A stretch of 64,000 nucleotides of DNA, taken from Candidatus Omnitrophota bacterium (GTDB lineage: Bacteria; Omnitrophota; Omnitrophia; Omnitrophales; Aquincolibacteriaceae). The notes under the pieces are model-generated. The model was not told the DNA's origin. It saw only the letters and a list, made by a program, of their open reading frames with translations, and did no database searches. Below are positions 5,518 to 28,076 of this stretch, one piece after another (position 1 is the stretch's first letter; each line of letters begins with the position of its first letter). The DNA lies in NCBI GenBank assembly GCA_043821445.1, contig JBDRCT010000029.1, positions 7,317 through 71,316 of the forward strand. Direction: 5' to 3'. Both the position numbers and the translations under genes were made by a program.

Positions 5518-5531
5518 TGAAAGGATCTTTT

Positions 5532-5998: not shown

Positions 5999-6027
5999 GC
6001 TGCGTTCGGCTAAACGAAGGAGAAACG

Positions 6028-6369: not shown

Positions 6370-6439
6370 AGCGAACAGGAATTTAAGCCTCATTACACAA
6401 CATCCTTTTCTTTAAAATTGAAAATTTCCAAGGGTTGGT

Positions 6440-9338: not shown

Positions 9339-9370
9339 ATCGGACGTTTTTATCATTTTATCTGAAGGGA

Positions 9371-9691
9371 GTGTCCATGAGTTTTGACAAAGAATTTGAG
9401 CAAAACATGAAACAACTAATGCATCTTCTAAAAAAGATCATGAGTCAATATCCAATGGAGGGGAAAAATCCTGCGGAGATGATGAAATTCTTTAAAGATA
9501 TGAAAGACAAGAGCTCGGACGTGAATATTTTTTTTCTGAACATGTCGCCGCTTTCTCCGGAAGAACTCGATGAGATCGAGGGAATGTTCGAAGAAGGTGT
9601 GATGGGCGAATATCTCAGGTCGGGAGAGCTTAAATGCGAGCTCAACGATGATGACCAGGTTTTCCTTAAGCGGCATGGCATCCGTTTTTAG
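9371..9691 (+). CDS. small acidic hypothetical protein
   Basis: 106 aa, no recognisable domain. Plausible RBS (GAAGGGAG). Confidence 0.4.
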   Translation: MSMSFDKEFEQNMKQLMHLLKKIMSQYPMEGKNPAEMMKFFKDMKDKSSDVNIFFLNMSPLSPEELDEIEGMFEEGVMGEYLRSGELKCELNDDDQVFLKRHGIRF

Positions 9692-9703
9692 GGCTATCGA
9701 CTC

Positions 9704-10525
9704 ATGACGCTTCAAAAATTTCTCTCTCTCTGGATTTTCCTTCTGTGCTTCTGTCCCGCAGGACTTCACGCGTCGACCGCTTTTGATTATTCGGCATGGG
9801 ATGCTTTCCTCAAAAAAAATGTGAACGAAAATGGCGAGGTGGATTATCAATCAATCAAGAAGGATCCGAAGGAACTGAACGATTCTCTGGCGAGTTTAGA
9901 ATCCGTTGATGGGCTGGCAATGCGGACGTGGCCGCGGGAAGAAACATTGGCGTTTTGGCTGAACGCCTATCACGCAGCGCTGATCAAACAGGTGGTTGAA
10001 AATTATCCCATAGCCTCCGTTCAAAAAATCCCAAGTTTTTGGGATATTTCGTCGTTCCATCTCGGAGAGAAACCGCGTCAAGGGAGGTACAGTTTGAACG
10101 ATATCCGAGCGGTAAATCTGATCCGGGTCTATCGTGACGAGAAGATCCATCTGGCGCTTTCGATAGCGGCTAGAGGAGGTCCCAAATTGATGCAGGAAGC
10201 CTTCACGGGTCCCAAGGTGGAAGGGCAGCTTTTTCTTTTGACGAGGAAATTCGTGACAGATCCGGCTTATGTGGATGTTACCCCTGGTCGGAAAGCGATC
10301 CGGATCTCGAAGATCTTCAAGTGGTATGGAAAGGATTTTAGGTTGGATTTTGGGACCCCGGAACCTCGCGGTAAGTTCTCAGAGGACGATAACGCCATAC
10401 TTTCTTTTTTGGCGTATTATCTTGAAGATGAAGCTAAAGGAGAGTATCTGCAGGAAGCCAACTACAAGATTGAATATCCCTCCTTCGATTGGTCACTGAA
10501 CGATTTCAAAAAAGAGGTTACTTAG
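9704..10525 (+). CDS. DUF547 domain protein (secreted)
   Basis: Signal peptide. AFWLNAYHAALIKQVVENYP motif typical of DUF547. Confidence 0.7.
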   Translation: MTLQKFLSLWIFLLCFCPAGLHASTAFDYSAWDAFLKKNVNENGEVDYQSIKKDPKELNDSLASLESVDGLAMRTWPREETLAFWLNAYHAALIKQVVENYPIASVQKIPSFWDISSFHLGEKPRQGRYSLNDIRAVNLIRVYRDEKIHLALSIAARGGPKLMQEAFTGPKVEGQLFLLTRKFVTDPAYVDVTPGRKAIRISKIFKWYGKDFRLDFGTPEPRGKFSEDDNAILSFLAYYLEDEAKGEYLQEANYKIEYPSFDWSLNDFKKEVT

Positions 10526-10606
10526 ATCGGTCCAGGATTTTTTAAGCACTCGTTCAAAAGTATTTAACTCCTTTCGCATCAATATGTTACGTTTTTTTTA
10601 AAAGCA

Positions 10607-10635
10607 TTGACAGTCCTAGTGAATTCTCATAAGAT
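10607..10635 (+). promoter_or_regulatory. putative sigma70 promoter (TTGACA-17-TAAGAT) upstream of rplU
   Basis: TTGACA at 10607-10612 and -10-like TAAGAT at 10630-10635. Seen in sequence. Confidence 0.4.
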
Positions 10636-10667
10636 ATGCGCTCTCTTACAGTCAAAGGAGTCATTTC

Positions 10668-10991
10668 ATGGAAAAGTATGCAATTGTTGAGACGGGTTCC
10701 AAGCAGTATTGGGTAGCACCCCAGCAGGTGATCGAAGTCGAGTTGTTGGATGTGGCTGAGGGCCAAAAAGAGGTTATTTTGGATCAGGTGATGCTCGTTC
10801 AGGATGGAGGCCAGGTGAAGGTCGGGACTCCGGTGATCGCGGGGGCCAAGGTCGTTTGCGAAAATCTCGGGGAGTTTAGGGGCCCTAAGTTGGTTCATTA
10901 CCGGATGCGCAAGCGTAAATCATCCCGACGTAAACAAGGACATCGGCAGGATCTGCTCAAGTTGCTTGTCAGAGAGATTAAAGTTGGCTAA
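10668..10991 (+). CDS. rplU: 50S ribosomal protein L21
   Basis: MEKYAIVETGSKQYWV… matches the L21 family. Confidence 0.9.
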   Translation: MEKYAIVETGSKQYWVAPQQVIEVELLDVAEGQKEVILDQVMLVQDGGQVKVGTPVIAGAKVVCENLGEFRGPKLVHYRMRKRKSSRRKQGHRQDLLKLLVREIKVG

Positions 10992-11012
10992 TCATATTTT
11001 TCAGAGGAAAAC

Positions 11013-11255
11013 ATGGCACATACAAAAAGTCAGGGTAGCACAACCAACGGAAGAGACTCCAATTCCAAACGCTTGGGCGTAAAAGCCTATGGTGGGCAGA
11101 AGGTCACCGCAGGCAGCATTATTGTCCGTCAGCGTGGGACCCGGTACCATCCTGGGAATTTTGTTGGGATCGGCACCGACTACACTCTTTTCGCGAAGCG
11201 AGCTGGGATCGTGGAGTTCTGGGCGAATCGATCTGTCCATATCATTCCGGGTTAA
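11013..11255 (+). CDS. rpmA: 50S ribosomal protein L27
   Basis: [24 protein letters not shown]… matches the L27 family. Confidence 0.9.
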
Positions 11256-11277
11256 TCCAGTTCCAATCAAGTTCGAA

Positions 11278-11320
11278 AAGGCTAAAAAGCGATCCTAAGC
11301 TTTTTGGCCTTTTCTATTTT
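11278..11320 (+). terminator. possible hairpin/attenuator between rpmA and obg
   Basis: GGCTAAAAAGC…GCTTTTTGGCC imperfect inverted repeat followed by a T-rich tract. Confidence 0.3.
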
Positions 11321-11331
11321 TAAGGACTTTT

Positions 11332-12303
11332 ATGCTAGTTGATAAAATTCATCTGAAAATCCAGGGCGGGCATGGTGGCAAAGGCTGTGAAAGTTATAAT
11401 CACCGCAAGGATCACAAGAGAGTCCCTAACGGCGCCGACGGCGGCGACGGAGGGAGTGTAATCTTCCGCGCTTCGCATAACGCCCCGGGTCTCGATCGTC
11501 TCAGGTTGAAGCAGCATTTGGACGCGGAGTCCGGCCAACATGGCAGTAGTGATAACAAACGTGGAAGTAAAGGGGCGGACTTGATCGTGTTGGTTCCCAT
11601 TGGGACTTCGATTTATCGCCGTGAAAATCATCTTGCGATCCGGGATCTTTTTCTGGAGGGCGAGGAAGTGATCGTCGCTCGGGGTGGCCGAGGTGGGTCC
11701 GGGAATATCGGCGACAAAACGGCAACTTCCGGTGAAGAAGGCGAAAAACTCGAGATCGATGTGGAATTTCGCATCATGGCGGATGTCTTTCTCGTGGGGC
11801 TCCCAAGCTCCGGGAAATCCTCCTTACTTCACCATTTGACGCGTGCCCCTGTGGAAGGTAAAAATTATCCTTTTGCGACACGCAGTCCAGTATTGGGCGT
11901 TCATCCCTACGACGACTATAAACAGATCAATTTCTGCGAACTGCCGTCCCTTTTTGAAGGTTCTACAAACGGGAGGGGATTGGGGACCGATTTTTTAAGA
12001 CACTTGGCTCGTGCCAAGCTGATCGTGTTCATGATCGATGCGACCTTGAAGTTCTCCCATACTGCCATCGAAGGATTGAGTGTCCTACAAAGGATCGTTT
12101 ATGAGCATGATGCAGCCTACCGGCAGATTCCGAGCGTGGTCGTGGTCAATAAGATTGATCTGGGACACGATATTGGGAAAATTCAGGAGGAGTTCCAGAG
12201 CTCGGGACAGATCTATTTTTTGATTTCAGTGAAAACCGGAGAAGGGGTAGAATCTCTCATGAAGTTTATCCATGAGAGAATCGAGAACGAAGACCATGTC
12301 TGA
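11332..12303 (+). CDS. obg: GTPase Obg/CgtA (short form lacking the C-terminal OCT extension)
   Basis: Glycine-rich Obg fold N-terminus (GGHGGKGCES…GGDGG) plus GTPase motifs (GLPSSGKSS). 323 aa. Confidence 0.9.
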   Translation: MLVDKIHLKIQGGHGGKGCESYNHRKDHKRVPNGADGGDGGSVIFRASHNAPGLDRLRLKQHLDAESGQHGSSDNKRGSKGADLIVLVPIGTSIYRRENHLAIRDLFLEGEEVIVARGGRGGSGNIGDKTATSGEEGEKLEIDVEFRIMADVFLVGLPSSGKSSLLHHLTRAPVEGKNYPFATRSPVLGVHPYDDYKQINFCELPSLFEGSTNGRGLGTDFLRHLARAKLIVFMIDATLKFSHTAIEGLSVLQRIVYEHDAAYRQIPSVVVVNKIDLGHDIGKIQEEFQSSGQIYFLISVKTGEGVESLMKFIHERIENEDHV

Positions 12304-15261: not shown

Positions 15262-16497
15262 ATGAACACAACTTTACCTTGGGCTATTTTGGGAGTGCTC
15301 TTCATAGTTTCCTTTTTCTTTTCCGCGTCCGAAACAGCTCTTTTTTCACTTTCTAAGCTCGATAAACGCAAGCTTAAAGAGCAATACCCACATCTTTCAA
15401 AATGGATCTTTGAACAATTACAAACACCACGCAAGACGCTCGGCACGGTTCTGATCGGCAATTTGGCGGTGAACACATTGGCAACATCGACAGTCACGCT
15501 TGTAGCTCTCAATCTTTTTGGGAATGCGCGGCTCGGCATAGTTTTGGCAGCATTGACTGTTTTCCTGATCGTTTTTTGTGAGATGCTTCCCAAGATTCTG
15601 GCGGTCCGGTCGCGTGTCAAAATGGCCTTATTCGTATCTCTGCCGCTTAAGTTTTTTGCGATGTTGTTCGCTCCCTTTAGGCTCTTGATGCGTTTTATAA
15701 CGGATCGTATTCTCTCCTTTCTTGTTCACGAAAAAATCGATCAGTCAGACATGATCTCTGAAAAAGAACTCAAGGTGCTTGTGAAGATTGGAGAGGAAGA
15801 AGGGGTTTTGGGAGGACAGGAGCGGCATATGATCCAAAAGCTTTTAGAGCTCGGGGAACGACCGGTCAAGGATATCATGACGCCGCGAACGGATCTTATT
15901 GGTTTGGATATCGAGGAGCCTTCGGAGAAGCATGAGGAACTTATTCGAAAATTTCACTTCACGCGTTTGCCTGTTTTTCAAGGCTCGATCGATCATATTC
16001 TTGGAGTTGTTGAATCGCAGAACTATCTTTTGCAAGAACCGCTTCCCGATGTGAAGCAAGTGATGCAGGAGCCGCTTTTTGTTCCGGAAAGCAAACGGAT
16101 CGATGATCTTCTGGAAACATTCCGAAGTAAGAATGAACGTTTTGCGGTCTGCGTGGATGAGTTTGGCGGGACGGCCGGGGTGGTGACACAGGAGGATATT
16201 CTTGAGGAGATTTTCGGGGAGTTTTACGATGAATATGCCAAGATCGAGCATCCTATCAGGCGTTTAGGCGAGGATCTTTACCTGGTGGATGGAAAAGTCA
16301 GCCTTGTGGAGTTCAACGATGTTCTTTCCTCGCATCTGATCGCAGAAGAGGCGACGACGCTCGGGGGTTATCTTTTCGAAAAAATGGGAGTGGTTCCTGT
16401 CAAAGGTGCAGTTTTTAATACAGAACAATTCGATTTTGTGATCCAGGATATGATCCGCCAGCGTATCCACCAGGTCATGGTCAGGAGGAAGCCATGA
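15262..16497 (+). CDS. CorC/HlyC-family transporter (DUF21-CBS pair-CorC_HlyC)
   Basis: 411 aa. N-terminal DUF21 TM region, two CBS domains and a C-terminal transporter-associated domain. Confidence 0.8.
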   Translation: MNTTLPWAILGVLFIVSFFFSASETALFSLSKLDKRKLKEQYPHLSKWIFEQLQTPRKTLGTVLIGNLAVNTLATSTVTLVALNLFGNARLGIVLAALTVFLIVFCEMLPKILAVRSRVKMALFVSLPLKFFAMLFAPFRLLMRFITDRILSFLVHEKIDQSDMISEKELKVLVKIGEEEGVLGGQERHMIQKLLELGERPVKDIMTPRTDLIGLDIEEPSEKHEELIRKFHFTRLPVFQGSIDHILGVVESQNYLLQEPLPDVKQVMQEPLFVPESKRIDDLLETFRSKNERFAVCVDEFGGTAGVVTQEDILEEIFGEFYDEYAKIEHPIRRLGEDLYLVDGKVSLVEFNDVLSSHLIAEEATTLGGYLFEKMGVVPVKGAVFNTEQFDFVIQDMIRQRIHQVMVRRKP

Positions 16498-17447
16498 TAG
16501 GTCTCCTGACCCTGTTTTTTCTATCTCTGGTGGCTTCGGCGTTTTTTTCAGGGGCTGAGATGGCTTTTGTTTCGGCGAACAAGCTGAAGCTTCACGAAAT
16601 AGCGGATGCCGGAGATAAAAAAGCCAGGTTCATTATGCATCTCCAGCAGCATCCCAATTATTTCCTGACCGCCATTCTCATAGGGAATAATGCGGCAAAC
16701 GTTACGGCGATCTCGATCGCGACGTGCATTTTCAAGGAATATTTAGGATGGAACAGCGAATGGGCCGTGATGCTGGTGATCGCACCAGTATTGATCATTT
16801 TTACGGAAATGGTTCCCAAGGATTACGGTCGCTTAAATGCGATTTCTTTTTTGCAGGGGAAGATCTTTTGGCTTAAGGGCCTCAAGGCGGTCCTGTACGG
16901 ACCGATCATCCTGTTCTTCAAGATGCTGAATTTTTTCTGGCCCTCTTTTCAACAGGGTGTTGTCCGGGATATCTTTGTGAATGAGGAGGAATTTCGCTCA
17001 CTCATCGATGAAAGTACCCAGAGAGGCATTGTAGGTCCGCAGGAAGAGAAACTGATCCACACCATCCTCGACTTTGAACGGATCCAGGTCTCCTCGGTGA
17101 TGATTCCAGCGGGGAAAGTGCCGATGGTGGATATTCACAGCAAGATCGAGGATGTCAAACAAATCGCACGTGAGACCCACGCTCGCATGATGCTCGTTTA
17201 CGAGGAAATACCGTCCATTGTGATGGGGATGGTCTATGTCTTCGATATCCTATGGGAGGAAGAGAACGCTCAGGGGCTCCATGATTTTCTCAGGGCCCCC
17301 ATTTTTATCTCAGAGGACACTTCCTTGGAGAAAGCTTTCCTGACACTCCAGAAAAAACGCCAATCCTATGCCGTTGTGACTGATCGAGCCGGGGACATTA
17401 AAGGGGTTGTCCCGATCGAGCGGCTTCTTATGTTCGAGAAGCACTGA
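16494..17447 (+). CDS. DUF21-CBS domain membrane protein (paralog lacking CorC_HlyC tail)
   Basis: 317 aa. The start overlaps the upstream stop. Same N-terminal architecture as the preceding gene. Confidence 0.75.
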   Translation: MIGLLTLFFLSLVASAFFSGAEMAFVSANKLKLHEIADAGDKKARFIMHLQQHPNYFLTAILIGNNAANVTAISIATCIFKEYLGWNSEWAVMLVIAPVLIIFTEMVPKDYGRLNAISFLQGKIFWLKGLKAVLYGPIILFFKMLNFFWPSFQQGVVRDIFVNEEEFRSLIDESTQRGIVGPQEEKLIHTILDFERIQVSSVMIPAGKVPMVDIHSKIEDVKQIARETHARMMLVYEEIPSIVMGMVYVFDILWEEENAQGLHDFLRAPIFISEDTSLEKAFLTLQKKRQSYAVVTDRAGDIKGVVPIERLLMFEKH

Positions 17448-17646
17448 ACGACGCGCGATTTTCTCCGTCCGATAAACTCTTCATTCCAATAGATTCTAAT
17501 AAAACAGTTCCTGTTTTTTTTGCTCTTCCTACCGTTTTTCTCCGGAGCATTTTGATCTCTTCTAGTGCGACGCCATTACTATAAAGCTTTACTAAGTGAG
17601 GCCGTTACATTGATATCGGAAGATTTAACTCGAGGAGGCAGACTTT

Positions 17647-18747
17647 TTGAGAATTATTGCTATCGCGAACCAAAAAGGCGGGTGTGGAAAGACCACAACC
17701 AGCATCAATTTTTCGGCGTGTCTGAATTTTCTTCAAAAAAAAGTTCTCGTGATCGATTTGGACCCGCAGGGGCATTCCACGATCGGGTTGGGGGTCAAGA
17801 CGCAGAAGGGAATACGGACCCTTTATGATCTACTAAGTCCGCTTCAACACGTGGCGCCTCCTCTCTCGCAAGTCATACGGAGCTTGAATCAGGATTTTGA
17901 TCTCATTCCCTGCAATGCCAGCCTGAATGCCCTTGAGGAAGAATTCGGGTTTGTGCCTAATTATCATCTCAAACTCCGGGATCTTCTGACCCGGATCGGC
18001 GAAGACCAGCGTCATTATGACTTTGTGGTTCTGGATTGCCCCCCGAATCTCGGGGTTCTCACCTGGAATGCCCTCAGTGCGGTTGATGAAGTCGTGGTTC
18101 CGGTTGAGCCGTCATTTTTTTCACTTCACGGGCTTGCGAAAATTTCGGAAACTTTCCAAGTTGTGAATCGGAGCCGGGAAACGCCCCTTGCCGTTCATGC
18201 GCTTTTGACGCTTTTCAATTCCCAAGTGAATTTTTCTCATGAGATCTATGATGAAGTGAAAGCTCATTTTCAGGACCGACTTTTTACGACGATTATCCAT
18301 GAACATGTAAGTCTGAAGGAAGCGGCGGCTGCGGGACAAAGTATTGTCCAATATGCGCCCCAATCGACGGCTTTTCAGGATTATTTGAATCTTGCAGTCG
18401 AATATTTGGAGCGGGATTGGAACCGGAGGCTTCCAGAGAAAGAACTCGGATGGGAGCAGGTTTTTAAAAATCATTTCGGGCCACGTTTGATCTCGGATGG
18501 GATCCTTTTTCAGTTCTCGAGTAAAACAGCATCCTCGGTAGAAATCGCCGGAGATTTTAATCGTTGGATTCCTGAGCCGCTCATTCGCCGTGATCAGGAC
18601 GGACTTTGGCAGAAGGTTATTTCGGTGGAGCTCAAGACGTTTCGCTACAAGTTCATTGTGGACGGAGAGTGGCAGGTGGATCCCCATCAGCCCGCGCAGA
18701 AAGAAAATGCCTATGGCGGCATCGATTCTTATATGGAATTTGCCTGA
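17647..18747 (+). CDS. ParA/MinD-family ATPase fused to a C-terminal AMPK-beta/CBM48-like glycogen-binding domain
   Basis: TTG start with a GGAGG RBS. Deviant Walker A KGGCGKTT. The C-terminal 85 aa (…GDFNRW…FRYKFIVDGEWQVDPHQP…GGIDSYMEF) align with the AMPK beta GBD (…GSFNNW…HQYKFFVDGQWTHDP…). Confidence 0.8.
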   Translation: MRIIAIANQKGGCGKTTTSINFSACLNFLQKKVLVIDLDPQGHSTIGLGVKTQKGIRTLYDLLSPLQHVAPPLSQVIRSLNQDFDLIPCNASLNALEEEFGFVPNYHLKLRDLLTRIGEDQRHYDFVVLDCPPNLGVLTWNALSAVDEVVVPVEPSFFSLHGLAKISETFQVVNRSRETPLAVHALLTLFNSQVNFSHEIYDEVKAHFQDRLFTTIIHEHVSLKEAAAAGQSIVQYAPQSTAFQDYLNLAVEYLERDWNRRLPEKELGWEQVFKNHFGPRLISDGILFQFSSKTASSVEIAGDFNRWIPEPLIRRDQDGLWQKVISVELKTFRYKFIVDGEWQVDPHQPAQKENAYGGIDSYMEFA

Positions 18748-18749
18748 TC

Positions 18750-19556
18750 ATGGATGATCCCAAAAAGCTCGTTCGTGGATTGAAAGACATTTCGCCTCTC
18801 TTTGGCGCGGTTTCCGAAGACGTCCCGGTCCGTCGTTCTCCCGAAGTTCAGGTGCTGGGTGTTTCGAGCCCCGACTGCGATGGCGATTCGCTTCTCCTGA
18901 ACACATTCTTTGCATTGCAGATCGCATCCCCGGAGAGAGCCTGTTCTCTTCTCAGCATTCTATCGCGCAAGGCCAGGGTTCCTTCGGGGTCCGGGGATAG
19001 TCTGTCAGAATCGTTTGGGGACCATCTCGTGCGGTATTGTCTTTATTGGGATGAGCTTCATGATCTTGTTAGCGGTCCTTCTTTGCCTCGATCCGAGAGA
19101 GTGCTCCGGAGCCGGGATATTTTCCTGGATTTCGAGTATCGTCACCTACTTCAGTTTGAGAAGGTGATTTCTTTGCTAGATAAATGGGTTCTTTTGTTGA
19201 GACCCACGGCTGAATCCTTGACGGAAGGTTACAAAATGATGAAAGTGGGGCTTGCACTTAACCCGCAACTCGAATTTTACGTCACCTTGTCCGGAAGCGC
19301 GGAGGAGGCTAAAGGGGTGGTAGTCTTCGATCAGTTTTCAAGCTTTGTGTTCACACATCTTGATGCTCATCTTGGATGGTTAGGGTGGATGGATCTTGCG
19401 GATCCTGCGCGACATTTTTCTGCGGCTCTTCACACGGAGCCGTTGAAATATCAGCATTGGAATGCAAAGCCCAGCCTCCAGAAGTACCTGCTGGCTGATT
19501 GGATCGAATCTTTGGAAAGAAAAACGCAGGTTTGTGCTCCGGCCGAGGTGCAATGA
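18750..19556 (+). CDS. MinD/FlhG-like protein with degenerate P-loop (putative pseudo-ATPase)
   Basis: VLGVSSPDCDGDS replaces the Walker A. It retains the LRPTAESLTEGYKMMK segment, homologous to the FlhG/MinD TPEPTSLTDAYALIK. The ORF upstream of ATG 18750 overlaps the previous gene. Confidence 0.5.
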   Translation: MDDPKKLVRGLKDISPLFGAVSEDVPVRRSPEVQVLGVSSPDCDGDSLLLNTFFALQIASPERACSLLSILSRKARVPSGSGDSLSESFGDHLVRYCLYWDELHDLVSGPSLPRSERVLRSRDIFLDFEYRHLLQFEKVISLLDKWVLLLRPTAESLTEGYKMMKVGLALNPQLEFYVTLSGSAEEAKGVVVFDQFSSFVFTHLDAHLGWLGWMDLADPARHFSAALHTEPLKYQHWNAKPSLQKYLLADWIESLERKTQVCAPAEVQ

Positions 19557-20092
19557 TGATCACGATCCAAGAGCGCGTTACCCGGCAGGAGATCTTCCAG
19601 CTGATCCGCCTTTCGATCCAGGAACTTCACGCGGACAAAATAATCCTCGAGGATATGAATGGCACCCCGTTTCTTTTTAAGAGCAAGGATGCACAAGTTT
19701 GGGCGCGTATTTTTTACCGGTCGATGCGGGATTATTCCGTGGAAGAATTACAGCAGGAAATCAAAAAGCTTTGGGTGCTGATGCCTAACGATGCGATACT
19801 CTATCTTTTCTATCCAGAATTGGACCGGCAACAGATCTTCAAGATGAACGGCTTCAGTGATCGCTTGAGCTTTTTTGAGTACGGCGGGCTTTTGAGTGCA
19901 GATCGGGAAAAAGTTGGTGCCCGAATATGCAAATGGATTCCCTCTTCCATGCCTGCCCTCAGCCTGGCCCAAGATGGGGAGATGCTCTCCCGCGTTCATC
20001 TTTCCCCAGGGAGTTTTTTGCAAAGCGCTCGCCTGACATCACAGGAAATCGCAGGTCTCGCCGAATTGTCTTTGGCTTTGCATCGGGTCTGA
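19553..20092 (+). CDS. hypothetical protein, third gene of the ParA cluster
   Basis: 179 aa. ATG 19553 overlaps the upstream TGA (ATGA). No recognisable domain. Confidence 0.4.
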   Translation: MMITIQERVTRQEIFQLIRLSIQELHADKIILEDMNGTPFLFKSKDAQVWARIFYRSMRDYSVEELQQEIKKLWVLMPNDAILYLFYPELDRQQIFKMNGFSDRLSFFEYGGLLSADREKVGARICKWIPSSMPALSLAQDGEMLSRVHLSPGSFLQSARLTSQEIAGLAELSLALHRV

Positions 20093-20427
20093 AACAGCTC
20101 TTCCGGATAATCTCGCGATCTTTTGGGACATTGACGGGCGCTAAGGAACGTGCGTTTTTTTTCAATACGATAGCCGTTGACGTTTTTTGTCCTTTGCGGG
20201 AGAATGCCCCCGAGGTTTGGGATTTTGGGCACGGGCATGCGCTTTAGCAGGTTCAAAAAGAGAGAAGTAAGGAGCCGCCTTATTTTCTCTCAAGAAATAG
20301 TTTCTTCCGTTTTGAAAAAGTGAGGCGCGACGGTCCGGAAGCCCAGATCGCCCAAAGAGCTCGCTTGGATTTCGTGACAGCCTTTTTGATCGCCAATGTT
20401 CGTTTCAACAGGCCGGAAGGGGACATC

Positions 20428-21861
20428 ATGATGACTAAAGTTTGTCGGAGGCTTTCTCTCATTTCCACTCTTTTTTTTCTTCTTCTTTTTTGCGGAAAAG
20501 ACGCTTCCGCCCAGGAAGATCTCAAGAACGAAATCGGGACTGTCCACAGTGAAAGCCGGCTTACAGAAAAGATATCCAAAACCGCCGCCAAGTCGGAAGA
20601 AAAAGAGCGGACGGACAAATACAAGACGGGGATCACCTATGCGGACGTCCTGAAGGAACCCGACAATATCGACCTCAATTTCCGTTACGCGCAGGAGCAG
20701 ATCGTCAAGGGCAGACTTCTAGGCGCCGCGGCGACTTTGGAGCGTATTCTTCTTGTCAATCCGAACCTTGCGGATGTGCGGCTCCTTTACGGAGTCGTGC
20801 TTTACCGGCTGGACAATTTGAATGAGGCTCAGAGGGAGCTGGACGCCCTCAAGGCCGTGCCCCTGCCGGCCAGGATCAAACAGGACGTCAGCCTTTACCT
20901 AAAGAAGATCCAGTCGCGAAAAAGGAGCACCCACGTTTCCGTCCGGGAGTCCCTGGGATGGGGCTATGACACGAACCGTAACGCGTCGCCCTCTTCAAAG
21001 TTTCAGTGGTTTAACGAGGTCCCGCTCGCCACTACCGGCAACAACGTCAGGCGGCCCGACACGAATTTCCTGAACGTTACGACCGTGGACGTGAGCCATA
21101 ATCTGGGGTTCCAGGCCGGTCACTCCGTTTTCGGGTCTTTTACTTATTTCCTGCAGGAACAAACCAACGTGAATTCTCTGGATCTTAGTTCTTTTCAGTA
21201 TGAATTTGGCGGGACCTTCAAGAACAAACACGTCGATTTTACGCCGTCTTTTTATGCCAGCAACGTTCTCCTTTCCAGGGAAGGTTTTTTAAGGACCCAA
21301 GGGGGGAAATTCCTTTTCGAGCGTAACGTCACGAAAAGGCTGGGCGCGTTCTATAGTTTCGGAATCGAACGCCAGGATTACACGAACATTTTCGAGGACA
21401 ACAATGCCTACAACCGCAAAGGGCCCCAGATTGATAATTTTTTGGGGATCAACTATATGCTGCTCCCGACGATGCGATGGACCACGAGCGTCGGTTATTC
21501 CCATAAATTCGCCAAACAGGACTACTACGCTTACGACCACGTTACTCTGAATAACAGCCACACGTGGATCTTGCCGAAGGGGCAGTTTTTGATCAATGCG
21601 ATCAATGCCTATTTCGATAATTACGACGCGCCGGACTTTGCCGTCTCCCCCCGCAACCGCCATGACAAGATCATGAGGTACCGGGTGACGTACGGCGTGC
21701 CGCTCACGACGCTTTTGATCGGAAAGATCCTGCCCGGGCCGCTCAAGGACACGGTCTTTACTTTTTCCTACGAATATTACAGGTCTCTTTCGAATATCAC
21801 GAATTACTCGTATAACGACAGCAAACTCCAGGCGCTTCTCAACTTCCGATGGGAGTACTAG
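20428..21861 (+). CDS. outer-membrane protein: N-terminal TPR-like region + C-terminal beta-barrel (Slam/DUF560-like topology)
   Basis: GGAAGGGGA RBS, then a signal peptide and a TPR-like segment. The C-terminal roughly 350 aa is rich in alternating aromatic/Gly/Asn/Tyr residues and ends …LLNFRWEY, a beta-barrel C-terminal aromatic signature. Confidence 0.55.
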   Translation: MMTKVCRRLSLISTLFFLLLFCGKDASAQEDLKNEIGTVHSESRLTEKISKTAAKSEEKERTDKYKTGITYADVLKEPDNIDLNFRYAQEQIVKGRLLGAAATLERILLVNPNLADVRLLYGVVLYRLDNLNEAQRELDALKAVPLPARIKQDVSLYLKKIQSRKRSTHVSVRESLGWGYDTNRNASPSSKFQWFNEVPLATTGNNVRRPDTNFLNVTTVDVSHNLGFQAGHSVFGSFTYFLQEQTNVNSLDLSSFQYEFGGTFKNKHVDFTPSFYASNVLLSREGFLRTQGGKFLFERNVTKRLGAFYSFGIERQDYTNIFEDNNAYNRKGPQIDNFLGINYMLLPTMRWTTSVGYSHKFAKQDYYAYDHVTLNNSHTWILPKGQFLINAINAYFDNYDAPDFAVSPRNRHDKIMRYRVTYGVPLTTLLIGKILPGPLKDTVFTFSYEYYRSLSNITNYSYNDSKLQALLNFRWEY

Positions 21862-21932
21862 ACCGTGTCAATTTTGAAATTAAGGGTACACGGTAGAGTA
21901 CTGTTTACCCTGCTAAAATTAAATGGAGAACA

Positions 21933-23279
21933 GTGCTAGCCATGAAAAAAACACCATCGTTCTTTGGTATTTTTTTGATGCTTGTTTTCAACGCGTCCGT
22001 TTCTGCCCAAGTCCCGCTTGCGGGGTCGGGAGCCGTTCCGGCGCAGGCGGGTCTTGAGCAGGTCGGGGTCGTGGCCGCCGCCTTCGGCAAGGTCGAGCTT
22101 AAAACGCCCGGCCAAGTCGGCCGCGTCGCCGAAAGCGGGAAGCCAGTCTTCATGGGCGATGAAGTAAAGACCGATGCGAAGGGGCGTTTGCAGATCCTGC
22201 TTCTTGACGAGACGGTTTTTACCGTTGGACCCGATAGCGCGATCGTGATCGATGATTTTGTTTATGACCCCGCGACCGATGAGGGGAAAGTAAGGGCAAG
22301 CGTTACCAAGGGTGTTTTCCGTTATGTTTCCGGGAGGATCGCGGCCAAAAAACCCAATAATGTCGCGATCAAACTCCCTTCGGCCATGATTGGTATCCGA
22401 GGAACGATCGTCGTGGGGCAAGTGGCGGCGCTTACCTCCCTTGCGATACTTATGGGCCCAGGCGAAAATAACGACGCCAGGGCCACAGTAGGAAGTTTTG
22501 TCGTCCAGGGCGAAGGGGCTCATGCAGGGGTGGAGCGAACTGTCAACCGGACGGGCTTCGGCGTTCAGGTGGACCAGACCGGAACGCTTTCCGCCACGTA
22601 CAAAGTTCCCGATGCTGACGTGAGCCGGTTGACTTCAGTTCTGGCCCCGGCGCAAGGATCGACCGAGGACTCCGGGCTGGGCGGCGGGGATTCCGCGACC
22701 AATCTTTCGGGCGAAGGGGGGGTGATCACGGAAGAAAATTCGAATATTTCCGGAGGCGTTACTGAGATTTCCAACAGCCTCGGCGATGATTCAACAAAGG
22801 GCGCCCAAGACACGGCCTCGGGCGCCACCAGCGTCGCGGACGGTATTTCAAAAATAGTGGATCTGGCGCGCATCACGACAGGGATTTTCTATTACTCCGC
22901 CTATGGATCATATCCGGGCGTTGGAGGCTACGCATCCGGACAATTGGAAATTAATTTTGGCACAAGAACGATTGGCAGCGGAAATTCCAATCTTTACGTC
23001 ACCGACGGCACCAACTGGGACGAGACATCGAGCTTCAGCGGCGGCGCAAAGTCTTTTGACCAGGCGGTTGGCGGGGGGCCTAACGCGGTTTACGATTGGA
23101 GCGGCACACCCGGCGACAACGGCGGCACTTTTACGACACTTCAGGTTACGCTTTCCAATGTCGGCGGAGAGGTCGCCCATCATGCAACGGTAGATTATAG
23201 CTACTCACAGGGCGGTACGGGTCCGATTAGTGGTAGCGGTAGCGCCACCGGAGACCGTTATGCGGGGTCCGCCCCCTGA
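21933..23279 (+). CDS. secreted FecR-domain protein with Gly/Ser/Thr-rich C-terminal region (paralog 1)
   Basis: Signal peptide. FecR-like core GDEVKTDAKGRLQILLLDETVFTVGPDSAIVIDDF…IGIRGTIVV. Very GC-rich. Confidence 0.6.
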   Translation: MLAMKKTPSFFGIFLMLVFNASVSAQVPLAGSGAVPAQAGLEQVGVVAAAFGKVELKTPGQVGRVAESGKPVFMGDEVKTDAKGRLQILLLDETVFTVGPDSAIVIDDFVYDPATDEGKVRASVTKGVFRYVSGRIAAKKPNNVAIKLPSAMIGIRGTIVVGQVAALTSLAILMGPGENNDARATVGSFVVQGEGAHAGVERTVNRTGFGVQVDQTGTLSATYKVPDADVSRLTSVLAPAQGSTEDSGLGGGDSATNLSGEGGVITEENSNISGGVTEISNSLGDDSTKGAQDTASGATSVADGISKIVDLARITTGIFYYSAYGSYPGVGGYASGQLEINFGTRTIGSGNSNLYVTDGTNWDETSSFSGGAKSFDQAVGGGPNAVYDWSGTPGDNGGTFTTLQVTLSNVGGEVAHHATVDYSYSQGGTGPISGSGSATGDRYAGSAP

Positions 23280-23369
23280 ACGGGACATTTCCATTCTGAA
23301 ACGGAATCAAAGAAAAGGGGACAGGCAATCAATGAATGCCTGTCCCCTTTACCTTTAAGGAAAATTCTC

Positions 23370-24227
23370 ATGAAAAAAAATATTCTCTGGATTTCCGTTA
23401 CTTTGATCGTTGCACTGATCGGGGCGTGGGGTGTTCTGTCCGCGCAGCCCGCGGGGCCGGCGCAGGCGGGGGTGGCGGGCGCCGTGAGGGGAGAGGTAAA
23501 GGCGGCGCCGGAAAGCGCGGCGGAGCGGCCTCTTAAAAGCGGTGACAAGATTTTTATGGGTGACCGGATCGAAACGGGCAAGGATGGCCAGATGCAGGTC
23601 CTTTTGCTCGATGAGACCGTTTTCACGCTTGGGCCTTCGAGCGCGACGGTCGTGGATGAATTCGTTTACGATCCGGCAACCGATGACGGCAAGGTGCGGG
23701 CCAGTATGCTGAAGGGGATCTTCCGTATCGTCACCGGAAGTGTGGCGCACAAAAAACCGGAGAACATGGAGGTCGCGCTCCCGGCCGGGGTCATTGGCTT
23801 TCGTGGCACGATCGTCGGCGGCATCATTGAAGGTTTGCGGTCGATGGTCGCGCTTCTGGGCCCCGAGCAGGCGGCCGGGCAGATCTACGTGAGCAATACG
23901 GTGAATGGCAAAACGGTCGGCGTGGATATCACGCAAGGCGGATACGGCACGGTCATAGGTGGCGCCGGCATTGCGCCGGTCCCCGCGTTCCACATTCCCG
24001 AGTCAGACCTTAACCGGATTGCGAACGCGGTAGGGCAGTCCATGACTCCCGGCGCGGCGGCCGAAACGACCGGGGAAGACATGACGACGGCCTCGAAAGC
24101 GAGAACGGGCGCTGGTGCGGAGGCTGCGGGAGAGCTCTTCAAGACCACGGATAAGATGGATCAGTATTCGCAGCAGGCCGCTCAGGATAAGGGGAGCAGT
24201 TCGTCGTCAGGCCATAGTTCCAGTTAA
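23370..24227 (+). CDS. secreted FecR-domain protein (paralog 2)
   Basis: Clear paralog of the 21933 protein (…GDRIETGKDGQMQVLLLDETVFTLGPSSATVVDEFVYDPATDDGKVRASM…FRGTIVGG). Confidence 0.6.
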   Translation: MKKNILWISVTLIVALIGAWGVLSAQPAGPAQAGVAGAVRGEVKAAPESAAERPLKSGDKIFMGDRIETGKDGQMQVLLLDETVFTLGPSSATVVDEFVYDPATDDGKVRASMLKGIFRIVTGSVAHKKPENMEVALPAGVIGFRGTIVGGIIEGLRSMVALLGPEQAAGQIYVSNTVNGKTVGVDITQGGYGTVIGGAGIAPVPAFHIPESDLNRIANAVGQSMTPGAAAETTGEDMTTASKARTGAGAEAAGELFKTTDKMDQYSQQAAQDKGSSSSSGHSSS

Positions 24228-26037
24228 AAAGCAGAAATAAAGGCGCCCCTTTATTTTGGAGGTCGCGATGGTGACACCGTCCCAGGATGGGCCCGGCGGA
24301 TCGGCGCGGCAGGATTGAACGCGGGATGCGTAGAGATCGTAAAGTGGCCCCAGTTCAATGTCCGGCAACTTGATCTTCCTGCAGTTTTCAAGCGATTTTT
24401 CGACTTCTTCCCAACGTCCGCTCCGGTAAGAGGCGAGCATCCGTTCTTGTTCCGTTTTGAGTTCCCGGAAGACCGCGCGGTCGTTTAAATCCTTATCTCC
24501 CAAAAGTGCGAAGATATTGACCGGGGTCTTCTTTCCCTTCACACGGATCAGGTCCACTTCCAGGGCCGCATTTCCGGCACTCCTGCCATTGTATTGGCCC
24601 CCAGGATGGTGGTCGTGCCATAATTTTTTGAGGCGCCTTCCAGCCGCGAGGCGAAATTGACGTCATCGCCCAGGACCGTGTAATCGAACCGATGCTCGGA
24701 CCCCATGTTGCCGACGCAAGCCTCGCCGGTATTGATGCCGACACCGCTCTTGATCTCCAGGAACGGTTTGCCTCGCTCCTCAGCCTCCCGCTTCCGGAGT
24801 GCGTTCCACTCCCGCAGGAACTGCTGCATCTCGATTGCCGCGAGACACGCGTGTTTTGCATGGTCCTTGTCCCCGAGCGGAGCGTTCCAGAACGCCATGA
24901 TGCAGTCCCCGATGTGTTTATCGATCGTGCCGCCGTGCTTCAGGATGATATCGGTCATGGGCGTCATGTAATGGTTCATGAATTTTGTGAGTTCCTGGGC
25001 GGTCATGGTCTCGGAAAGGCTCGTGAAACTCCGGATATCCGAAAAAAGAAAGGTCATGGTCCTGGTCTCGCCGCCGAGCTTGAGCTGTTTCGGATCCTTG
25101 ACCGGTTTTGCCACCAAGGCCGGGGAAAGATAACGGCTGAAGGCGCCGCGGATCTGGCTTTTCTCGCACTCGGTACGCAAAAAATTCAGGAATGAGGACA
25201 CAAGATAGATGAGGAAGATCACAAGCGATGGGAACACGGGGTCCGTGAGCAGATGGTGCCGATCAAAGGCGTACCACGAAAGTCCCATGGCGAGCGTCAC
25301 GGCCGTGATGCCGACCGCTGCGCAGAGAACGGCGCCCGCCCGCGGCAAAAGCAGGATCAAAATGAGCCCCAGCAGGACCAGGTAACTGAATTCGGCGCCT
25401 TCGGCCCAGTCCGGCCGTTCGAGGAAGTTTTGAAGAAGGATCTGTTCGGCGATCCCCGCATGGATCTTCACCCCCGGAGCGCGCGGATTGAGCGGCGTTG
25501 AACGGAGATCTTTAAGGCCTGCCGCGCTTGTCCCGATAAAAAGCAGGGTCCCTTCCAGACTCGCAAGGTCAAAATCGTCCGAGAGAACCTTCCAGGCCGG
25601 GAGGTAACGTTCGGGCTGATCGCCCGTATCATAAAGCCAGACCCTGCCGTGTTTGTCCGTGGGAATCGTGAGTTTGCCGATGCGGACCTTCACGATGCCC
25701 GTCCTTTCTCCGAAGGCCCGTTCGCCGCTGCCGCCGCTGAGCTTGATCTTGTAGAGGGTCGCCCCTTGTGCGACCCGCAGGGCTTCCGCTGCCAGGGAAG
25801 GATAAATGGTTTCCCGCAGGTTGAAAAAGAGGGGGAGACGGCGGATGACGTTATCCCGGTCATCCGGCATCGCGATGCTTCCGTTGCCGGCCGCGGCTTT
25901 CTCCAAAACGGGCAGATCGACAACAGCGCCCTCATAAGAAGGGCGAAGGTGGTCGATGGCCTTATCGCCCGCGATGCCGCCGTTCCCGTTCGAAGCCGCG
26001 ATTGCCGTTTCTCGATCAGTCCCGAAGACGGAGCTTG
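24207..26037 (-). pseudogene. CHASE2-domain class III adenylate/guanylate cyclase, 5'-truncated and frameshifted near the 3' end
   Basis: The 452-aa ORF (24548-25906) carries the distal part of CHASE2, TM helices and the cyclase core (FLFSDIRSFTS…GDCIMAFWNAP). The cyclase C-terminus (DLIRVKGKKTPVNIFALLG) continues in another frame in the ORF at 24207-24557. The frame is open upstream to 26037 with no start codon and no N-terminal TM or CHASE2 N-half. Confidence 0.65.
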
Positions 26038-26140
26038 GTCAAAATTTCAATGATCAAGATCATACAAAAAAATCCAACTTAGAACGGTGCCGGGTAAACG
26101 AGGGCCAAACTAATTTAAAAGTGTTAAGAGCACGTCAAGA

Positions 26141-27432
26141 TGTCCGCTTTCCGTAGCACGTGATTTGTCCGCTTTTGGTTTTTGGTTATTTTGAGCTCCT
26201 GGGTTTCTTCGGGTTTGAATTTGGCAATTATGTGCGGTCCGTAGGTGACGGTGATTGATTCATCGAGATGCTCATGGATCGTAACTTTGCATTTAGCAAA
26301 GGAGATTCTGAATTTCGAAGGTTGAATCTAAAGGATCCTGTTGTTCCAGTGTACGGTGTTGTCGCATCCGACGGAACGTTGCTCTTTGATTGAGAAGACG
26401 AGGTCAAGGTTCTTGCCCCGGTGAGGGGTAAAGGCCGTTCCTTTTTGTTCCGGGGGTTTTACGAAAGATGCCCGGTACTGTGGCAGAAAGGTCTCAAGGA
26501 TGTAGCGGTTGGCATCGGGAATGGTCTTGATGCCGTAGAGTTTGAGTTCATTGGGCAAACGACCCTGTCATGTTCCGAAGATCCTTTCGGATCGGCCCCG
26601 TGCTTGAGGGGAATAGGCAGGAATGGGCTCGATGCCGAGCTCGTAGAGAGCTTGTCCGATCTGAGTGAGATTAGAGAGATCGACTTTGGGGCTAGACGGC
26701 AGGGTTCGGAAGAAGTGACTGGCGCGATCCGAATAAAGGAGGCAAAAGACCCCCTTGGACCGGACCACATGGCGTAGAGCGAGCATGCATTCCCTGGAGT
26801 TTTCCTGGGGAACGAGCTTGGCGTAATAGATGTCACCGGTGGCATCATCAGCGACCACGATGAGATCTTGGTGGCCTGGAAGGTTCGGGATCCATGAATG
26901 CGTGGAACCGTCGATATGGAGCATCATTCCCGGGATGGGTTTTCTGGGCCGGCGTTGGTGGTGTTTTGATTTTTTGGAGCGGACCTCGACGTACCCAGCG
27001 CCTTGGAGCAGGTTTTTAACCCAGGTGTATTTATAACCGATGCCGTGCTTGGCGAGTTGTTCATAAAAGTGCCATGTGTTCCAATCTTTGTATTGGTCGC
27101 GGTAGAGCTGAAGAACGCGGCTTCTGACGGGTTCTGGCGCCCTTTTAGGGCTCGGACGCCTGCTTCTGCGGTCGAGAATGCTTTCGTAGCCGCCCAGTTC
27201 GACGGATTCTTTCCAGCGGCGAATGGTGCGTTCGTCAACTTTCAAGATTTCAGCAACCTCTCTCCAGGTTAAGGATTTGTGATAGGCCCTGGTGAAGACA
27301 TCTTGTATTTTCATGATCCGCTCCCATTGAGCCGGGGGATAGAGCATAATCAGCCTCCTGTTCTGAGCTTGAAAAGCTGATTATACGGTCCGGCATAAAA
27401 GCGGACATTTCACGTGCTACGGAAAGCAGACA
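26141..27432 (-). mobile_element. IS element (~1.29 kb) with 36-bp imperfect terminal inverted repeats; ISNCY/IS481-like DDE transposase
   Basis: IRL at 26141-26176 (TGTCCGCTTTCCGTAGCACGTGATTTGTCCGCTTTT) against the reverse complement of IRR at 27397-27432: 33 of 36 positions match. One transposase gene lies between them. Confidence 0.7.
26328..27347 (-). pseudogene. DDE transposase (HTH + rve-like core, HIDGSTHSW motif) interrupted by an in-frame TGA at 26568-26570
   Basis: The ORFs 26568-27347 and 26328-26558 are in the same frame, separated only by the TGA. The joined product reads …RGRSERIFGT*QGRLPNELKLYGIK…, like uninterrupted ISNCY-type transposases (…ER.FGTLQDRL.KELRL.GI…). Confidence 0.65.
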
Positions 27433-27467
27433 ATTCATTAGCTTACGACAGCGTTGGTCACTTCCAT

Positions 27468-27496
27468 TGACAACGCCCCCTAAAACGATAATAATA
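27468..27496 (+). promoter_or_regulatory. putative promoter (TTGACA … TAATAA) upstream of the bactofilin-HTH gene
   Basis: TTGACA at 27468-27473, an AT-rich -10 region about 16-17 nt downstream, and an AAGGAGA RBS at 27528-27534 before ATG 27540. Confidence 0.35.
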
Positions 27497-27539
27497 AGTT
27501 AGCTTCTGTATCCCACAATGCCTCCAAAGGAGAACGACC

Positions 27540-28076
27540 ATGGCCAATAATAAAAAGAAGGAAGATATCCAGGAGAAGATTCTTGACGTTGACGCGAGCA
27601 TGCAGGGCACGATTTCGTTCAAGGATCCCGTGAATTTGCGCATCAACGGAAGTTTTGAGGGCAAGCTTGACACGCGCGGCAATCTCACGATCGGCGAGAA
27701 CGCCAAGGTCAGCGCGAATATTCACGGCGACAATATCGTCATAGCCGGAAAAGTTTCCGGAGATGTCATGGCGACTCAAAGCATTTCCATTCTTGGAACG
27801 GCAACTCTCAAAGGGAACCTTACCACGCCACGCTTGAGCATCGGAGACGGCGCAATCCTTCAAGGACTTGTGAATATGCAAGGCCTGAGCGTTTCAGATG
27901 GATCGGATGTTTTTTTGACTTTAAAGGATGTGGCGCAGTATTTGGAGGTGGAGGCTCGCATTATTGAAGAGTGGGCACATTCCAAAAAGATCCCGGCCCG
28001 TTTTGATAATGGTCACTGGATCTTTACCAAGACCGAGGTGGATCAATGGGTCCAGCGGGAGAGGGCTTCGGTCTAA
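27540..28076 (+). CDS. bactofilin (DUF583) domain fused to a C-terminal excisionase/MerR-type helix-turn-helix DNA-binding domain
   Basis: Residues ~30-125 have a bactofilin beta-helix repeat pattern (NLTIGENAKVSANIHGDNIVIAGKVSGDV…LKGNLTTPRLSIGDGAILQG). The C-terminus LTLKDVAQYLEVEARIIEEWAHSKKIPARFDNGHWIFTKTEVDQWV matches the HTH_17/excisionase signature. Confidence 0.7.
   Translation: MANNKKKEDIQEKILDVDASMQGTISFKDPVNLRINGSFEGKLDTRGNLTIGENAKVSANIHGDNIVIAGKVSGDVMATQSISILGTATLKGNLTTPRLSIGDGAILQGLVNMQGLSVSDGSDVFLTLKDVAQYLEVEARIIEEWAHSKKIPARFDNGHWIFTKTEVDQWVQRERASV

Follow-up and report, generated by a model that had tools for sequence, protein, structure and literature searches.

ParA/MinD ATPases are a general bacterial means of placing chromosomes, plasmids, carboxysomes, chemoreceptor arrays and division sites, and in every case known to us the matrix is DNA or the membrane and a protein adaptor sits on the cargo. 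In the McdA-McdB, PpfA, ParC and PomXYZ systems, the ATPase binds the nucleoid and its partner binds a protein cargo. Here, we analyzed a three-gene cassette encoded within a 64-kb stretch of Omnitrophota DNA (hereafter, the window), which likewise places an orphan ParA-type ATPase beside a small partner expected to stimulate it, and whose presumed role is also the distribution of a large cytoplasmic body. In contrast to these systems, the module for cargo binding is part of the ATPase itself, and a polysaccharide would be its cargo. At about even confidence, we read the cassette as a chromosomal orphan ParA/MinD-type positioning module acting on intracellular alpha-glucan (glycogen). Neither a ParA-CBM48 fusion nor the positioning of glycogen by a ParA was described in the literature that we searched, and the combination of this fusion with a partner that lacks an ATP site and carries a ParB-like peptide suggests a so far undescribed system on storage-glycogen granules.

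The ParA-CBM48 fusion

The three ORFs run in the same direction at window positions 17647-20092 (Table 1), in a context of housekeeping chromosomal genes. An earlier note on this DNA had described them as tightly coupled through ATGA overlaps behind a single ribosome-binding site. Such an overlap is present between genes 2 and 3, but genes 1 and 2 are separated by a 2-nt gap (TGAtcATG), and the single site was an overstatement, since gene 3 has its own upstream GAGGT. No Rfam match was obtained between 16.5 and 21.5 kb of the window, and a promoter scan returned fewer sites than shuffled controls. A terminator scan returned 9 sites versus 4.4 in shuffles; as most of these fall inside coding sequences, no operon boundary was drawn from it.

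Table 1. Features of the cassette, in window coordinates.
Feature	Position	Strand	Description	Basis
Shine-Dalgarno-like GGAGG	17633..17637	+	9 nt 5' of the gene 1 TTG start	Sequence reading
Gene 1	17647-18747	+	TTG start, 366 aa; ParA-CBM48 fusion	
Gene 1 ParA/Soj-like ATPase domain, aa 1-256	17647..18414	+		Pfam AAA_31, E 3.6e-47
Gene 1 conserved linker, aa 257-277	18415..18477	+		Alignment A3
Gene 1 CBM48/AMPK-beta-type glycogen-binding domain, aa 278-366, and stop codon	18478..18747	+		Pfam, PDB profile match
Gene 2	18750..19556	+	ATG start, 268 aa; predicted MinD/FlhG/FleN-fold pseudo-ATPase, probable ATPase-activating partner	
Gene 2 N-terminal peptide KKLVRGLKDISPLF, aa 5-18	18762..18803	+	Candidate ParB-type ParA-binding motif	
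Gene 2 degenerate P-loop SSPDCDGDS, aa 39-47	18864..18890	+	Asp46 at the Walker A lysine position	
Gene 3	19553..20092	+	179 aa; putative accessory protein	

The Pfam scores of gene 1 (AAA_31, CbiA, AMPK1_CBM and CBM_48) are far beyond chance. Its N-terminal domain scores above threshold for both AAA_31 (161 bits, cut-off 27) and CbiA (61 bits, cut-off 25.4; E 1.4e-16) and contains the deviant Walker A motif KGGCGKTT, with the signature lysine K10 and K15, in addition to D39 (Walker A') and D130 (Walker B), which confirms the ParA/Soj-like deviant Walker-A ATPase proposed earlier. Across the 75 fusions used for residue conservation counts, K10 is kept in 74, and K15, D39 and D130 in all 75. 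Judged by its motifs, gene 1 is a catalytically intact ParA, and it shares the deviant Walker A ATPase and all catalytic residues with the ParABS proteins M. xanthus ParA (8RAY; E 4e-48) and Thermus Soj (E 2.5e-42), the nearest solved structures to this domain. It departs from ParABS in its extra C-terminal CBM48 and, in the clade of the window, in the loss of two critical DNA-binding arginines.

The DNA-binding residues of Thermus Soj are R182, R194, R208 and R211, and R189 and R218 are critical in B. subtilis Soj (PMC6393308). The four Thermus positions read Q193, K205, E219 and S222 in gene 1 of the window, which lacks the basic patch, and the two critical B. subtilis arginines are replaced by Q and S. 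Other fusion clades retain two to three of the four residues. With both critical arginines gone in the clade of the window, it is uncertain whether a classical nucleoid ratchet applies to this protein.

The kinship of the ATPase domain to chromosomal ParA/Soj, together with the ParB-like peptide on the partner and a possible DNA-binding, nuclease-like fold in gene 3 (both described below), would fit an ordinary ParA for partition of a chromosome or plasmid, with no particular significance of the C-terminal domain. Against this, gene 1 shares only 35-40% identity with chromosomal ParAs, which are 52% identical among themselves, and it scores 109 bits with the NCBIfam ParA_partition model, below the cut-off of 180; the substituted arginines and the housekeeping neighbors also argue against it. 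According to the earlier note, a cassette always located beside partition (parB, parS) functions would indicate ordinary DNA partitioning; no ParB-like gene was found within 6 kb at any of the 80 loci sampled for neighborhood analysis, nor do parS or parB lie near the cassette, a further difference from ParABS. We consider a partition role very improbable, and this reading was rejected on the absence of ParB and the loss of the DNA-binding arginines.

The ATPase domain is joined through a linker, in which W258, P263 and L267-G268-W269 are invariant, to a C-terminal domain that the earlier note had likened to CBM48 and the AMPK glycogen-binding domain. Both assignments exceed their Pfam gathering thresholds (AMPK1_CBM, aa 293-354, E 2.5e-10, 40.9 bits, cut-off 26.8; CBM_48, E 5.6e-6, 27 bits, cut-off 22.4). 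The top PDB match of the domain profile is the AMPK beta1 CBM 1Z0N (E 7.8e-8), and the nearest solved structures are AMPK beta CBMs, followed by pullulanase, GlgB and SEX4. With these proteins, gene 1 shares the family and the glycogen-contact residues; it differs in that the fusion partner of the module is a P-loop ATPase, and not a kinase scaffold or glycoside hydrolase. Compared with the AMPK beta CBM, the gene 1-type domain has Tyr/Phe at L146 and Asp/Asn at N150.

Residues W307, K335, W342 and G357 of gene 1 correspond to W100, K126, W133 and G147 of rat AMPK beta1, of which W100G and K126Q abolish glycogen binding (PMC6274970). Among the fusions, W307 is present in 75/75, position 335 is Lys in 68 and Arg in 7, W342 is present in 73/73 and G357 in 72/73. 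At the level of residues, the domain retains all those required for glycogen binding by AMPK beta. It could be argued that the CBM48-like domain is instead a protein-protein module or binds another ligand, so that a protein cargo is positioned and glycogen is irrelevant: the AMPK-beta CBM also contacts proteins such as the kinase domain and debranching enzyme (PMC6274970), the Pfam scores of 40.9 and 27 bits are modest, and most loci have no glycogen genes nearby. We regard this as unlikely, taking into account that the sugar-contact residues (two Trp, one Lys and one Gly) are near-invariant over several phyla, which would be difficult to account for if the ligand were not a glycan, and that GH57/DUF4912 or GlgB genes neighbor the fusion in two independent lineages.

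The partner proteins

Gene 2 gave no match in Pfam or NCBIfam. Its predicted structure adopts a SIMIBI fold of the MinD/FlhG/FleN type without the P-loop lysines, and in the model the SSPDCDGDS loop is flanked by strand 33-39 and helix 47-58. Conservation of D46 and S47 is at least 90%, and when the ATP site was re-checked for intactness it again proved degenerate throughout 33 homologues. The P-loop-less MinD/FlhG-like protein of the earlier note is thus upheld by the loop and by the modeled fold; it differs from MinD, FlhG and FleN in lacking both P-loop lysines and Pfam membership. With hhalign, gene 2 could not be matched to the ParA alignment, and its kinship to ParA is visible only by fold and via c14, a more distant family of gene 2 orthologues weakly linked to ParA/CbiA (E 3.6e-5 and 2.7e-4). 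The gene 2 family is small: at 50% identity it forms 220 clusters in a set of 1.84 billion proteins.

FlhG is known to activate another SIMIBI NTPase, FlhF, through an N-terminal peptide. In the N-terminal peptide of gene 2, L7, R9, L11, S15 and F18 are invariant and L7-x-R9-G10-L11-x-x-I14 is conserved, a pattern (L-x-R-G-L-x-x-I) that matches L11/R13/L15/L18 of M. xanthus ParB (PMC12462528). Gene 2 therefore bears ParB's N-terminal motif for ParA binding, and may bind the ATPase in the same manner. As in ParABS, an unstructured peptide of the L-x-R/K-G-L-x-x-L type is present at the N-terminus of the partner, and the ParB-contacting hydrophobic residues of the Walker B-proximal loop are kept in gene 1 (L135, V137 and W140). 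Unlike in ParABS, the partner is predicted to be a MinD-fold pseudo-ATPase, and the ParB/Srx CTPase and HTH centromere-binding domains are absent from it (no Pfam match; MinD-like fold). The peptide reads KKLGKGLEDISYLF in distant gene 2 orthologues and KKQGRGLARVSHYF in an unrelated RodZ-like neighbor of the fusion in a Desulfobacteraceae genome (L079), and is therefore found on three different partner scaffolds. The earlier note had suggested that gene 2 may act as a regulatory partner; because of the ParB-type peptide it is better read as a ParB-analogous activator, probably the ATPase-activating partner of gene 1.

Gene 3 gave no domain match, in keeping with the earlier description of a protein with no recognizable domain, and nothing was found in support of its suggested role as a cargo adaptor. 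A putative PD-(D/E)xK-like domain at the N-terminus of the protein is followed by a disordered linker and, at the C-terminus, by a conserved helix (LTxxEIAxL). Its structure model is poor (pLDDT 65) and the fold matches are weak. A positional analogue in distant Omnitrophota shares the LTxxEIAxL motif and has a weak NucS match (E 0.018). No ExK motif is visible in the alignments of gene 3 (A2) or of this analogue (A5), and it is possible that the N-terminal domain is an inactive PD-(D/E)xK-like domain.

Distribution and gene neighborhood

A search of GTDB species genomes with the linker and CBM of gene 1 identified 292 relatives, with the fusion present in Omnitrophota, Planctomycetota, Desulfobacterota and UBP3. 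Exact-sequence look-ups of the window's own proteins in a contig index gave no record. The earlier note had proposed to look for the three-gene cassette in relatives. In 54 of the 80 loci, clustering placed gene 2 immediately 3' of the fusion, with the divergent version c14 in 12 more, so that one or the other follows the fusion in nearly all sampled Omnitrophota loci, and gene 3 is present in 40 loci. The Planctomycetota fusions, on the other hand, have no recognizable gene 2- or gene 3-like partner or ParB-like peptide alongside, and no glycogen neighbors.

In 39 of the 80 loci, those of the window-type Omnitrophota, a gene for a CT398-like zinc-ribbon protein comes next after the cassette and, in most of them, the mraZ-mraW-ftsL-ftsI division and cell-wall cluster comes after that, with no glycogen genes (mraZ in 29 loci, mraW in 35, and STAS, probable ftsL and ftsI likewise in most). 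This arrangement keeps alive a division-linked role, in which the cassette would be a spatial regulator of cell division or envelope growth, similar to MinD, MipZ or PomZ, and the CBM48 would sense glycogen or energy status as in AMPK, linking storage to division instead of moving granules. Other neighbors point in the same direction, including Cu-oxidase_4 (PgeF/YfiH) as the next gene in distant Omnitrophota, the HTH and RodZ_C domains of the peptide-bearing partner in the Desulfobacteraceae locus, FtsK near one fusion (L078), and a bactofilin-HTH gene 3' of gene 3 in the closest relative of the window (L001). The dcw adjacency is nevertheless broken in both the window and this closest relative and is absent outside the window-type clade. 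It should be noted that the upstream genes obg, proB, proA, nadD and CNNM are as syntenic as the dcw side, and the adjacency may therefore reflect a gene order that was inherited, without any functional link. In addition, a pure sensor role explains the architecture of a ParA ATPase with an activator no better, and we consider this reading rather doubtful.

Many Omnitrophota MAGs have been inferred to encode the synthesis of glycogen (PMC8542988). Glycogen genes, which the earlier note proposed to look for near related cassettes, are absent near most of the 80 loci, including the dcw-type ones, and none was found across the 64-kb window, but they do occur elsewhere. In 7-8 distant Omnitrophota species, GH57 and DUF4912/Glucodextran_B are encoded three to four genes further downstream, in another lineage (L060) the gene immediately 3' of the fusion encodes GlgB, and a stand-alone CBM48 protein is encoded upstream of the Desulfobacteraceae fusion.

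A candidate glycogen-acting positioning module

Taken with the conserved sugar-contact residues, the GH57/DUF4912 and GlgB neighbors independently support a link to glycogen. Counted against it are the lack of any glycogen gene in the window, the 39 loci with CT398-like and dcw-side neighbors instead, and the Planctomycetota loci, which have neither glycogen neighbors nor a recognizable partner. The cells of many Omnitrophota are reported to be very small, and active granule positioning would seem less needed in them.

Under the glycogen-acting module that we favor, ATP-driven dimerization of gene 1 would pair two CBMs, so that the protein would attach to glycogen granules multivalently and in a nucleotide-dependent manner, in the way that dimerization turns on membrane binding by MinD. 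The dimerization-dependent avidity for a surface would be alike in both proteins, whereas the C-terminus of gene 1 is a CBM48 rather than an amphipathic helix. The peptide of gene 2 would then dock at the dimer interface and stimulate ATP hydrolysis, releasing the ATPase, and gene 3 would be an accessory factor. Such a cycle could distribute or tether granules, or bring the products of genes 2 and 3 to them; granule positioning itself is what we infer from these parts. In relatives with Soj DNA-binding residues, the dimer could bridge nucleoid and granule, while in the window's clade, with its DNA-binding arginines gone, glycogen may itself be the binding surface. A bolder version, which we put forward tentatively and consider rather unlikely, is that this clade swapped nucleoid binding for polysaccharide binding, with ATP-dependent dimerization controlling glucan attachment, a pseudo-ATPase with a borrowed ParB peptide resetting the cycle, and glycogen granules forming a new class of ParA/MinD substrate. 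It would be the first ParA/MinD system to use something other than DNA, membrane or a protein body as its matrix or cargo.

If the favored reading is true, a ParA that directly binds storage polysaccharide would represent a new cargo class and an adaptor-less design, with a bearing on the bacterial control of where glycogen is placed and how it is inherited. The gene 2 family would represent a P-loop NTPase fold that has been reused as a nucleotide-free activator with a ParB-type peptide. This peptide also occurs in Desulfobacteraceae on an unrelated, RodZ-like protein, which points to a portable activation tag. Finally, the fusion is found in Planctomycetota, a phylum with some cultured and genetically tractable members, and the hypothesis is therefore open to direct testing.

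The ATPase and carbohydrate-binding halves of gene 1

The three genes of the cassette lie in the same direction on the + strand (17647-20092; see table). Gene 2 starts at an ATG 2 nt past the gene 1 stop, rather than at the more 5' TTG that opens the mechanical ORF. All close homologs of the cassette proteins are labeled Omnitrophota, and the gene 3 product is 100% identical to an Omnitrophota MAG protein at NCBI.

The N-terminal half of gene 1 is a ParA-type ATPase (Pfam AAA_31, E = 3.6e-47), with M. xanthus ParA (8RAY, E = 4e-48) and Thermus Soj as closest solved structures. Since it shares only 35-40% identity with these two proteins, which are 52% identical to each other, and scores below the NCBIfam partition-ParA cut-off, we regard it as a diverged paralog. 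The signature lysine, Walker A lysine, D39 and Walker B D130 are kept in 74-75 of 75 fusions (gene 1 and its homologs). The DNA-binding basic patch of TtSoj comprises R182, R194, R208 and R211, and the BsSoj equivalents R189 and R218 have been shown to be needed (PMC6393308). At the four patch positions the window protein has Q193, K205, E219 and S222, planctomycete fusions have R, R, F and K, and those of distant Omnitrophota R, Y, N and R. The fusion family was probably a nucleoid binder ancestrally, and both critical Soj arginines are gone in the window's clade.

The C-terminal half matches AMPK1_CBM (E = 2.5e-10) and CBM_48 (E = 5.6e-6), both over the Pfam gathering thresholds, which bears out the CBM48/AMPK-type domain claimed in the earlier note. 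Its nearest solved structures are the AMPK beta1/beta2 carbohydrate-binding modules, then pullulanase, GlgB and SEX4. Residues W307, K335, W342 and G357 align to AMPK W100, K126, W133 and G147; in AMPK, glycogen binding is lost with W100G or K126Q and reduced with W133L or G147R (PMC6274970). Across the fusions (75, from several phyla) the equivalents are conserved in 75/75, as K in 68 and R in 7, in 73/73, and in 72/73, respectively. Because these sugar-contact residues match AMPK and are conserved, the predicted sugar site looks functional, and the domain would bind glycogen.

A putative activator and its N-terminal peptide

Gene 2 had no match in Pfam or NCBIfam, and profile comparison with a ParA alignment revealed no similarity. 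A divergent gene 2-like family (c14) matches gene 2 (hhalign, 95% probability) and ParA (hhalign E = 3.6e-5), and its HMM matches planctomycete fusions; through this distant partner family gene 2 is connected with ParA at the sequence level. At the Walker A site, the loop joining strand 1 to helix 1 reads SSPDCDGDS, and D46 at the lysine position is near-invariant among homologs; gene 2 is a pseudo-ATPase, as proposed in the earlier note. With 220 clusters (50% identity) among 1.84 billion proteins, the gene 2 family is a small one.

The N-terminus, KKLVRGLKDISPLF, is the best-conserved region of the protein. The orthologous partner of distant Omnitrophota starts with KKLGKGLEDISYLF, which resembles the canonical ParB motif, and at L079, a Desulfobacteraceae locus, the gene 3' of the fusion encodes an HTH and RodZ_C protein, unrelated to gene 2, with the N-terminus KKQGRGLARVSHYF. 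The peptide is thus common to three scaffolds, every time adjoining the fusion, which argues for a putative ATPase-interaction tag. At L079 the HTH_17 and RodZ_C partner (6378-7733 of that locus) has the N-terminus KKQGRGLARVSHYFLSG, which carries the same peptide as gene 2, and a stand-alone 103 amino acid AMPK1_CBM (CBM48) protein is encoded 5' of the fusion (3692-4000).

The structure model of gene 3 is of low confidence (pLDDT 65). Its positional analog in distant Omnitrophota (alignment A5) gave NucS as the sole near-significant match in a PDB search (E = 0.018); both share a C-terminal LTxEEIAxF/L helix, and no catalytic ExK motif is visible in either. We consider the gene 3 product an accessory protein.

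The best-supported reading makes the cassette a module of the ParA/MinD type that would act on glycogen: its ATPase, intact and joined to a glycogen-binding domain that looks functional, would be paired with a cognate activator that carries the ParB-type peptide. What was observed are the domains, the conserved residues, the MinD/FlhG-type fold of the gene 2 model, the peptide motif and the gene neighborhoods. Beyond these, the peptide would stimulate hydrolysis, avidity may depend on dimerization, and positioning is a conceivable outcome. Glycogen synthesis has been inferred for many Omnitrophota MAGs (PMC8542988). In full-text literature searches we found neither a ParA-CBM48 fusion nor ParA-driven glycogen positioning described; the fusions are publicly annotated either as "AAA family ATPase" or as "chromosome partitioning protein".

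Distribution and gene neighborhoods

A scan with linker plus CBM as query, over one genome per GTDB species, returned 292 relatives, and 76 of the 80 best loci carry a ParA-CBM48 fusion family gene. The loci come from Omnitrophota, Planctomycetota (Pirellulales, Phycisphaerae, Mucisphaera), Desulfobacteraceae, UBP3 and one record labeled Methanomassiliicoccales. The earlier note had named a partition-gene neighborhood as evidence against its reading; a ParB-like motif was found in none of the 80 loci, and ordinary DNA partition is unlikely. The neighbors of the cassette in the window are chromosomal housekeeping genes (ribD/ribE, mlaEFD, trxB, obg, proB, proA, nadD and two CNNM/CorC genes).

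Window-like Omnitrophota (type I) show the order obg-proB-proA-nadD-CNNM-CNNM-fusion-gene 2-gene 3, followed in 39 loci by a CT398-like zinc-ribbon protein and mostly then by mraZ, STAS, mraW, probable ftsL and ftsI. Distant Omnitrophota (type II) have manC, a pilin-like gene, the fusion, gene 2-like and gene 3-like genes, Cu-oxidase_4, DUF4912/Glucodextran_B and GH57. The main rival explanation, a division- or envelope-linked regulator whose CBM serves as a storage sensor, draws on the type I adjacency to these division (dcw) genes, the RodZ-like partner, and the PgeF and FtsK neighbors; however, upstream synteny is conserved to an equal degree, and the dcw adjacency is broken in the window and its closest relative, L001. 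At L060, GlgB lies directly 3' of the fusion.

The CNNM/CorC (CBS-domain) transporter pair is kept in 53 related loci, 26 loci having an additional unannotated gene (~162 amino acids) between pair and fusion. The type II pilin-like gene is type IV pilin-like, and Cu-oxidase_4 corresponds to PgeF/YfiH; Cu-oxidase_4, DUF4912/Glucodextran_B and GH57 lie 3' of the cassette (~8900-12300) at L057, L059, L066, L068, L071, L072 and L075, and L070 has only the DUF4912 protein of the DUF4912/GH57 pair. The Methanomassiliicoccales record (L060; CP070739.1, 3.2 Mb) encodes a bacterial-type ParA-CBM48 most like the Desulfobacteraceae fusion, which may reflect mislabeling or horizontal transfer. At L048 (5275-6372) an in-frame stop between ATPase and CBM splits the fusion (5275-6153 and 6157-6372), which marks a pseudogene, a naturally divided gene or a misassembly.

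The region downstream of the cassette in the window

The window follows neither arrangement 3' of the cassette. Relative to L001, where a bactofilin gene lies directly 3' of gene 3, it has an additional ~7.4 kb between gene 3 and the bactofilin-HTH gene, with the GC content rising to ~58% at 22-26 kb; this segment is probably an insertion. In Myxococcus, ParA and ParB are organized by bactofilins. The window also encodes a GH94 protein, whose architecture resembles that of a cyclic beta-1,2-glucan synthase or phosphorylase, with an unannotated ORF 5' of it.

Features of the cassette and its surroundings in the window
Feature	Coordinates	Strand	Details
CNNM/CorC tandem pair	15262-17447		directly 5' of cassette
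Gene 1	17647-18747	+	TTG start, GGAGG 9 nt 5' of start, 366 aa
Gene 2	18750-19556	+	ATG start, 268 aa
Gene 3	19553-20092	+	ATGA overlap with gene 2, 179 aa
Probable insertion	20100-27500		~7.4 kb
TPR protein	20320-21861		in ~7.4-kb segment
Two FecR-domain proteins	21933-24227		in ~7.4-kb segment
CHASE2-nucleotide cyclase	24548-25906	-	in ~7.4-kb segment
HTH transposase-like gene	26568-27347	-	in ~7.4-kb segment
Bactofilin-HTH_17 fusion	27540-28076		178 aa, bactofilin domain and DNA-binding HTH_17
Unannotated ORF	31586-33883		765 aa
GH94 protein	33850-40374		2174 aa; Glycoamylase, GH94 supersandwich and GH94 catalytic domains
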